NCBI GenBank assembly: GCA_000004695.1
Contig: CM000151.3
Coordinates: 6,240,001-6,304,000 of the forward strand
DNA from: Dictyostelium discoideum
Lineage: Eukaryota
Reading direction: 5' to 3'
DNA length: 64,000 nt
Translations under genes and position numbers: made by a program
Notes under the pieces: model-generated
The model's input: the letters and a program-made list of their open reading frames with translations, nothing else
Told to the model about the DNA's origin: nothing
Database searches by the model: none
Part shown: positions 6,408 through 6,975 of the stretch, one piece after another
Layout: the number at the start of each line of letters is the position of its first letter
How positions within the stretch are numbered: position 1 is the stretch's first letter

Positions 6408-6975
6408 GTTAGCAAGTGTGTTAACCACATTTCTGGCACCATAAAGAGATGATAATAATTAAAATGGGCAATTAAAATTTTAGGGTGATGGGTATGTGTG
6501 GGTTCGAATAAAAAAAGATTTTATATATAATTCTATTGATTGATTATGCGTGTGTGGGTGTATGATTTTAAAAATAGATATTTTTTATTTAAGAATGTTT
6601 GAGATTTGATTTTTTTTAAATAGAACCACACCACACACTCTTTGTTTTTTTTTTTTTTTATTTTTTATTAGAATGATATTATTATTAATTAATTGAATCA
6701 CAATCAATAAGAGTGAATTACATTATCTTTTAAATAATCAATATTCTATTATATTATTATTTATTATTAATTCCTTCAATCATTTTGGGAATGGCAATAT
6801 AAAAAATATCTATTTTTAAAATCATACACCCACACACGCATAATCAATCAATATAATTATATATAAAATCTTTTTTTATTCGAACCCACACCCATCACCC
6901 TAAAATTTTAATTGCCCATTTTAATTACTATCATCTCTTTATGGTGCGAGAAATGTGGTTAACACACTTGCTAAC
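6408..6975. repeat. Large imperfect inverted repeat / foldback: arms of about 179 bp (6408..6586) and about 175 bp (6801..6975), about 97% identical, with a 214-bp spacer
   Basis: Direct reading: gttagcaagtgtgttaaccacatttctggcaccataaagagatgataataattaaaatgggcaattaaaattttagggtgatggg... reappears as its reverse complement at 6801-6975 (...ccctaaaattttaattgcccattttaattactatcatctctttatggtgcgagaaatgtggttaacacacttgctaac). Differences are a few substitutions and one 4-bp indel. It lies in the divergent intergenic region between cdc123 and the 7229 gene. Confidence 0.85.

Follow-up and report, generated by a model that had tools for sequence, protein, structure and literature searches.

How did a near-perfect inverted repeat of about 590 bp (6397-6986) come to lie in the intergenic DNA between two divergent genes, and is it of any use there? 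The window, i.e., the whole 64-kb stretch of Dictyostelium discoideum DNA analyzed here, has 24.5% G+C and contains AAT repeats, extended runs of A or T, and ORFs rich in N/Q; its composition and motifs suggest a social amoeba of Dictyostelium type. The repeat sits within the 1.2-kb upstream region common to a cdc123 homologue, whose ATG is at 6005, and a gene for a small protein of 170 aa. This setting had been described in an earlier note as a divergent cdc123/small-secreted-protein promoter region, and it is borne out by a PF07065 exon on the minus strand and a 170-aa ORF with a hydrophobic N-terminus on the plus strand. The main features are:

5445-6005, minus strand: first exon of the D123/cdc123 homologue (Pfam PF07065, E = 1.9e-44).
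6397-6588, plus strand: left arm of the repeat, 192 nt, G/T-rich on the plus strand.
6589-6798, no strand: spacer (loop), 210 nt, unique and AT-rich.
6799-6986, minus strand: right arm, 188 nt, lacking the 4 nt (GTAT/TATG) that are inserted in the left arm.
7229-7741, plus strand: small-protein gene, the 170-aa ORF with a hydrophobic N-terminus.

The best match of the cdc123 exon in a homologue search of a protein database has 41% identity and comes from chytrid fungi; dictyostelids are absent among the matches. The 170-aa ORF has no detectable family in a family search and no match in an exact-product look-up.

The limits of the arms were set by local alignment of 6380-6640 with the reverse complement of 6760-7010. 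In the global alignment, the arms are identical at 183 of 188 aligned positions (97.3%). They differ by five substitutions (6400/6983, 6407/6976, 6435/6948, 6455/6928, and 6533/6854) and by a 4-nt indel at 6492-6495, which falls in a GT-rich stretch and has its bases in the left arm only. A repeat finder reports the same pair of arms, broken in two at the indel. The structure had been noted before as a foldback of about 570 bp (6408-6975) having arms of about 180 bp, about 97% identity and a 214-bp spacer; realignment confirms it and refines its limits to 6397-6588/6799-6986 (97.3%, spacer of 210 nt), the arm homology reaching some 11 nt farther outward on each side.

When folded as RNA, positions 6390-6995 have a predicted energy of -301.5 kcal/mol (shuffles -98 +/- 5.4, z = -37.8), and when folded as DNA, -200.1 kcal/mol (shuffles -48.9 +/- 4.2, z = -35.7). 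Single arms and the spacer fold no better than chance (z from -1.4 to +0.6) and form no sub-hairpins, so that pairing of arm to arm is the sole structural feature of the unit. Similarity between spacer and arms is not significant. The arms have an exon-like G+C content of 22-31% vs. 8-12% in the adjoining AT-rich intergenic DNA. A coding origin of the arms was considered and rejected, since every one of the six frames contains stop codons, in the arms as in the spacer. Exon-like G+C combined with stops in all frames is what would be expected of motif-dense regulatory DNA.

Motifs of a regulatory type are found in both arms and in the spacer:

6495-6503, plus strand: G-box-like cluster A, [TG]G[TG]G[TG]G[TG], mirrored at 6884-6894.
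6551-6561, plus strand: G-box-like cluster B, mirrored at 6826-6836.
6626-6637, minus strand: additional G-box-like cluster in the spacer, found by motif scan.
6536-6543, plus strand: TTGATTGA, a direct repeat that forms part of TATTGATTGATTAT; its mirror image is at 6844-6851, and a third copy is found at 6064-6071.

Clusters A and B and their mirror images correspond to the GT-rich motifs of TGGGTGT type that had been reported in the arms. Seven of the 39 G-box-like clusters of the window fall in the cdc123/170-aa intergenic region. When the right arm is omitted, the remaining, non-duplicated 793 bp hold five such clusters, where 0.40 are expected (P = 6e-5). The same 793 bp contain AATCAAT/ATTGATT nine times (0.64 expected, P = 3e-8), and TATTGATTGATTAT is carried by both arms. 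Direct TTGA repeats are reportedly Dd-STAT-type elements (Kawata and colleagues, 1996). The sequence (T/G)G(T/G)G(T/G)G(T/G) is the GBF response element, and pairs of it are present in promoters common to divergent small-protein genes (PMC2257962). GbfA binds G-rich motifs of prestalk and prespore genes (PMC6598861). Judged by its motifs, the cdc123/170-aa region would be a GBF-type promoter module, in which the candidate motifs have a putative regulatory role.

The sigN Group 2 divergent promoters of D. discoideum have two pairs of GBF sites that are common to opposed small-protein genes (PMC2257962). The present region is similar in that it is a divergent intergenic region with one small-protein gene and paired G-box clusters. 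Unlike in sigN Group 2, the pairs arise here from an inverted duplication with 97% identity, and the 170-aa ORF does not belong to a detectable family.

G-box-like clusters are concentrated in other intergenic parts of the window as well, namely at 42.5-42.9 kb (42535-42864, six clusters in 330 bp), at 13773-13842, and at 48040-48054. None of these places resembles the arms in sequence, and they probably represent further promoters of the same regulatory class. Within the 64-kb window, a sequence with four G3 tracts (loops of up to 15 nt) is present solely at 6466-6502 (plus) and 6917-6885 (minus), once per arm (GGGCAATTAAAATTTTAGGGTGATGGG(TATG)TGTGGG). This block is a weak G-quadruplex candidate with a 14-nt loop, and arm fragments of it are absent from the supplements of a D. 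discoideum G4 survey (PMC6511855). Both arms also contain, reading outward, ATG GTG C(G/C)A GAA ATG TGG TTA ACA CAC TTG CTA AC. The outward ATG opens a low-complexity ORF of 59 aa at 6941-7120 (plus) and one of 14 aa at 6445-6401 (minus). These ORFs are probably meaningless; they would be upstream ORFs if the arms act as distal promoters.

The origin of the arms is best approached through a third, degenerate copy of their inner segment:

6021-6104, minus strand: M0, the degenerate third copy, located between 16 and 99 nt upstream of the cdc123 ATG.

M0 lies about 400 bp from the repeat and has the orientation of the right arm. It is about 85 nt long and about 65% identical. Four elements occur in it and in the arms in the same order: AAAAAAAGATT (A-run and GATT), TATTGATTGATTAT as an exact 14-mer, a block of GTGTGTG, and AAGAAT after a T-run. 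The three-way alignment of M0 and both arms has 52 invariant columns. The Smith-Waterman score of M0 and the inner arm is 49 (shuffles 24 +/- 4), and one of 300 mononucleotide shuffles reached 47. When the inner arm was compared with all 250-nt segments of the window on both strands, M0 was the best non-self match with a score of 43 (next 34; 99th percentile 33). Homology of M0 is well supported by this window-wide ranking, if not overwhelmingly so. Since the top non-self match is in the same intergenic region, the arm sequence appears to be native there. At the left arm, the similarity to M0 extends beyond the inner edge by about 8 nt (TTTAAGAAT); at the right arm, it does not go beyond the edge. 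This is a weak hint that the left arm together with the spacer next to it came first and that the right arm is the copy.

Further copies of the arms were not detected in the 64-kb window, where self-BLAST gives poly-T matches only and a dust-filtered self-comparison finds the pair of arms once. Three related modules within 1 kb, with none elsewhere in the 64 kb, are predicted by serial local duplication and not by a dispersed element. A check for flanking direct repeats gave as the best pair at the outer boundaries AATATT (6401-6406/6977-6982), which is palindromic and equally readable as an extension of the arms (P = 0.63 vs. AT-rich controls), i.e., no significant target-site duplication. 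A second direct repeat flanks the right arm only:

6790-6801, plus strand: AATGGCAATATA, repeated directly as AATGG-AATATA at 6985-6995.

The two match at 11 of 12 bases with one gap, which is not significant (P = 0.21 vs. AT-rich controls), and they are a possible trace of a junction or of microhomology. Sequence inspection and the control test revealed no junction microhomology of convincing length.

A recent inverted duplication had been one of the origins offered for the foldback, and it is favored here by the presence of M0 at a distance of 400 bp, by the lack of another copy in the window, and by the lack of a significant target-site duplication. The reading preferred here, with moderate confidence, is that about 190 bp of native promoter DNA were duplicated locally, in inverted orientation and fairly recently. 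Points against this reading are the modest length (about 85 nt) and identity (about 65%) of M0 and the lack of convincing microhomology at the junctions. In addition, the AATGG(C)AATATA around the right arm is readable as the target-site duplication of an inserted piece of 185 nt, and a low-copy mobile element is compatible with a copy count that covers the 64-kb window only.

By local duplication, a single module of the promoter, which would most likely be the left arm, would have been copied in reverse about 200 bp away. The copying could have involved template switching during replication, or break repair templated by nearby sequence. Transcription-factor sites would have been doubled and made mirror-symmetric, so that both flanking genes would be faced by this module in an identical relative orientation. 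Read-through by RNA polymerase would give a transcript with a 190-bp hairpin that could be cut by Dicer-like enzymes, possibly as a by-product. Long inverted repeats are catalogued in LIRBase (PMC8728187), and template switching is treated as an origin of miRNA hairpins (bioRxiv 10.1101/2023.04.19.537475). As outlined in these two sources, such repeats are similar to the present one in having near-identical, reversed, and closely spaced arms in non-coding intergenic DNA that would form a long hairpin if transcribed. Typical template-switch products, as far as they are outlined there, are smaller than the present arms (190 nt) and spacer (210 nt), and unlike in the repeats outlined there as seeds of hairpin RNAs and miRNAs, the DNA duplicated here is promoter-like and not derived from a target gene. 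If the local duplication is true, the locus shows cleanly how a compact and AT-rich amoebozoan genome can remodel a common promoter, one step having doubled a block of sites and created a template for a long hairpin. Being derived from a promoter and having 97% arm identity, the foldback would then also be a candidate for the very first stage of the process by which miRNA loci are proposed to come and go as whole "modules" (PMC11014262).

A different origin would be the insertion upstream of cdc123 of a DNA transposon of foldback or MITE-like type, non-autonomous and ending in inverted repeats of 190 bp. The unit resembles MITEs and foldback transposons in that it is short (590 bp, i.e., <800 bp), non-coding (stops in all six frames), and bounded by long inverted repeats (97.3% identical) around an AT-rich interior, and its G+C content exceeds that of the surrounding AT-rich DNA. 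It differs from them in its single copy in 64 kb, in the lack of a significant target-site duplication, and in the arm relative that adjoins it, for M0, a partial relative of the arm interior 400 bp away, is not predicted by a dispersed element. The outer ends are readable as TT[T/C]GTTAGC...GCTAAC[G/A]AA, flanked on both sides by TA or by AATATT, but the latter is palindromic and inseparable from continued arm homology (P = 0.63). A search of metagenome contigs for an exact arm 24-mer gave 0 matches. The mobile element that the earlier note had suggested thus gained no support from the tests run (one copy in the window, flanks at P = 0.63, M0 nearby) and is considered unlikely. If a multi-copy foldback is true, a small non-autonomous family would be added to the Dictyostelium repeat catalogue. 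Neither outcome, local duplication or multi-copy element, would overturn current understanding.

Another proposal concerns function and can coexist with either origin. The unit would be a hairpin-RNA or proto-microRNA gene, having a transcript that starts from a T-tract beside the left arm and a 190-bp stem that is cut into RNAs of about 21 nt. The tract is as follows:

6378-6399, plus strand: T-rich tract, 19 of 22 bases T, directly 5' of the left arm; the first G is at 6408.

The predicted stem is extremely stable (-301.5 kcal/mol, z = -37.8). The pri-miRNAs and mRNAs of D. discoideum have a generic start-site motif, which this tract resembles, in which a G follows a T-run, and its miRNA loci are mostly intergenic hairpins with transcripts starting at such a G (PMC6161686). 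T-runs are, however, ubiquitous in the genome, which makes a putative start site at the T-tract weak evidence. A comparison of D. discoideum with D. firmibasis shows rapid turnover of miRNA loci, which are proposed to arise and vanish as whole "modules" (PMC11014262), but six T-free arm fragments, a partial tiling, are absent from the supplements of the two miRNA studies (PMC11014262; PMC6161686). The window contains no further sequence complementary to the arms and hence no visible target. A D. discoideum region derived from a retrotransposon, with a partial Skipper fragment, is proposed to give a long hairpin RNA (stem of about 320 bp, loop of about 900 nt) as the source of cloned small RNAs (PMC2175303); like the present unit, it is a long inverted repeat that is endogenous to a genome of this kind. 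A hairpin-RNA gene is on balance quite improbable.

A further proposal joins origin and function, i.e., that the inverted duplication made promoter DNA into a new RNA-producing locus, either a proto-miRNA hairpin or mirrored DUSE/TGTG-box promoters from which unannotated short RNAs would be transcribed outward, in the direction of both neighboring genes. This is decidedly doubtful. In the proto-miRNA version, the 190-bp hairpin may give small RNAs matching promoter DNA soon after its birth.

The repeat had been considered also as a cruciform-forming regulatory structure. The regulatory part of this suggestion agrees with the promoter-type motifs that fill the arms. Its cruciform part does not hold as well, since spontaneous extrusion in duplex DNA is unlikely with a spacer of 210 nt. 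A hairpin at the level of RNA or single-stranded DNA is more plausible than a cruciform in duplex DNA.

The arms could alternatively be promoters of DUSE-dependent ncRNA genes of the Class I RNA/snRNA type, forming a head-to-head pair, or the relics of one, that fires outward. The motifs in question are:

6884-6891 and 6890-6897, plus strand, right arm: DUSE-like ACCCACAC and ACCCATCA, respectively, directed outward, with the TGTG box AAATGTG at 6951-6957.
6426-6502, minus strand, left arm: mirror pair of DUSE-like motif and TGTG box, the latter at 6432-6426.

Reading outward, each arm has a TATA-like run, a T-run, a DUSE-like CCCA motif, and an exact AAATGTG 60-61 nt farther on, and the pairing of DUSE-like motif and TGTG box, with its mirror image, is the only one in the window (about 0.03 expected by chance, for independent DUSE-core sites). 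Motif and spacing resemble those of D. discoideum Class I RNA promoters, in which a CCCA-type motif and AAATGTG are likewise about 60 nt apart (PMC7919456). ACCCATCA, which is 61 nt before the exact AAATGTG in both arms, has one mismatch to [AT]CCCA[CT]AA, as has the other DUSE-like motif, and both overlap the G-box-like clusters 6884-6894 and 6495-6503; the match may therefore simply be a G-box, which makes this a minor rival. A T7 run at 7012-7018, about 55 nt past the right-hand TGTG box, and the frequent occurrence of related D. discoideum small-RNA genes in close pairs would fit such promoters, but the left side is without a nearby T-run and the arms are alike for only about 30 nt past the TGTG box. 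Unlike in Class I RNA genes, no RNA body follows: an AAG start, a terminal stem, the 11-nt motif, and a CTGT end are lacking past either TGTG box, the candidate transcripts fold at shuffle level (z from -0.7 to 0.0), there is no Rfam match, and arm fragments are absent from the supplementary tables of Class I RNAs (PMC7919456). Small-RNA promoters are, on this evidence, very unlikely.

That the repeat is an artefact of assembly or cloning, e.g., a chimeric foldback read, can hardly be credited, for although amplification or long-read chimeras can yield inverted duplications, the arms differ here by five substitutions and a 4-nt indel and are parted by 210 nt of unique sequence, whereas artefactual foldbacks are normally perfect and have no spacer.

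Rejected as well was a tRNA gene or tRNA-derived element. ARAGORN finds neither tRNA nor tmRNA in the window, and Rfam gives no match at gathering thresholds over the whole window; at E <= 10 over 6200-7200, it gives only MIR2118 and CrcZ, both at chance level, and no tRNA. The arms contain only the B-box-like GGTTCGAAT, at 6501-6509 (plus) and 6878-6886 (minus), which is identical to the core of the tRNA T-loop/B-box. GTGGG stands before it, as in a T-stem, and an A-run takes the place of the complementary stem after it. In the window, GGTTCGAA has no further occurrence. The site could be an isolated TFIIIC-type site or due to chance. A full-text literature search with arm fragments returned only the tRNA T-arm motif, in unrelated papers.

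A GT-rich 18-mer had 111 matches in metagenome contigs of 30-70% GC, all by chance and with no extension past the seed. Two inverted copies of this 18-mer, ATGCGTGTGTGGGTGTAT, with 49 nt from start to start, are present in metagenome locus L001 (950-1016) and in about a dozen others (L008, L009, L017, L022, L023, L049, L051, L056, L060, L061, and L063). In L001, the one locus inspected, it lies within a GC-rich, near-perfect palindrome that has no similarity to the window past the seed. This palindrome appears to be a conserved hairpin of another organism, unrelated to the window.

A second, unrelated foldback is found in the window at 15225-15375. It is a spacerless palindrome in which outer arms, AACATCATATGGATGACTGATACATCTGAAATTAAATTTC, surround about three tandem palindromic units, TTCAATAATAATAACATTATTATTGAAATTAA, and its DNA fold has -52.3 kcal/mol (z = -13.8). 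Fragments of it are absent from the miRNA supplements of PMC11014262. On the minus strand, a short frame is open from about 15510 and reaches its stop, a TGA at 15342-15340, within the right arm; this foldback may accordingly be an inverted copy of the 3' end of a gene. Its presence indicates that local inverted duplications recur in this genome. Just upstream of it, there is a perfect 31-nt inverted repeat, TTTTCCAGATTCAGGAATAAAAAAAAAAA, at 15050-15080/15128-15158, with a partial direct copy at 15019-15045. Tandem repeats occur at 24408-24899, where a 45-nt unit is present in 11 copies (81% matches, about 41% G+C), and at 24977-25158, where shorter arrays have periods of 24 and 30 nt. The arrays of 24408-25158 are probably a repetitive coding region.
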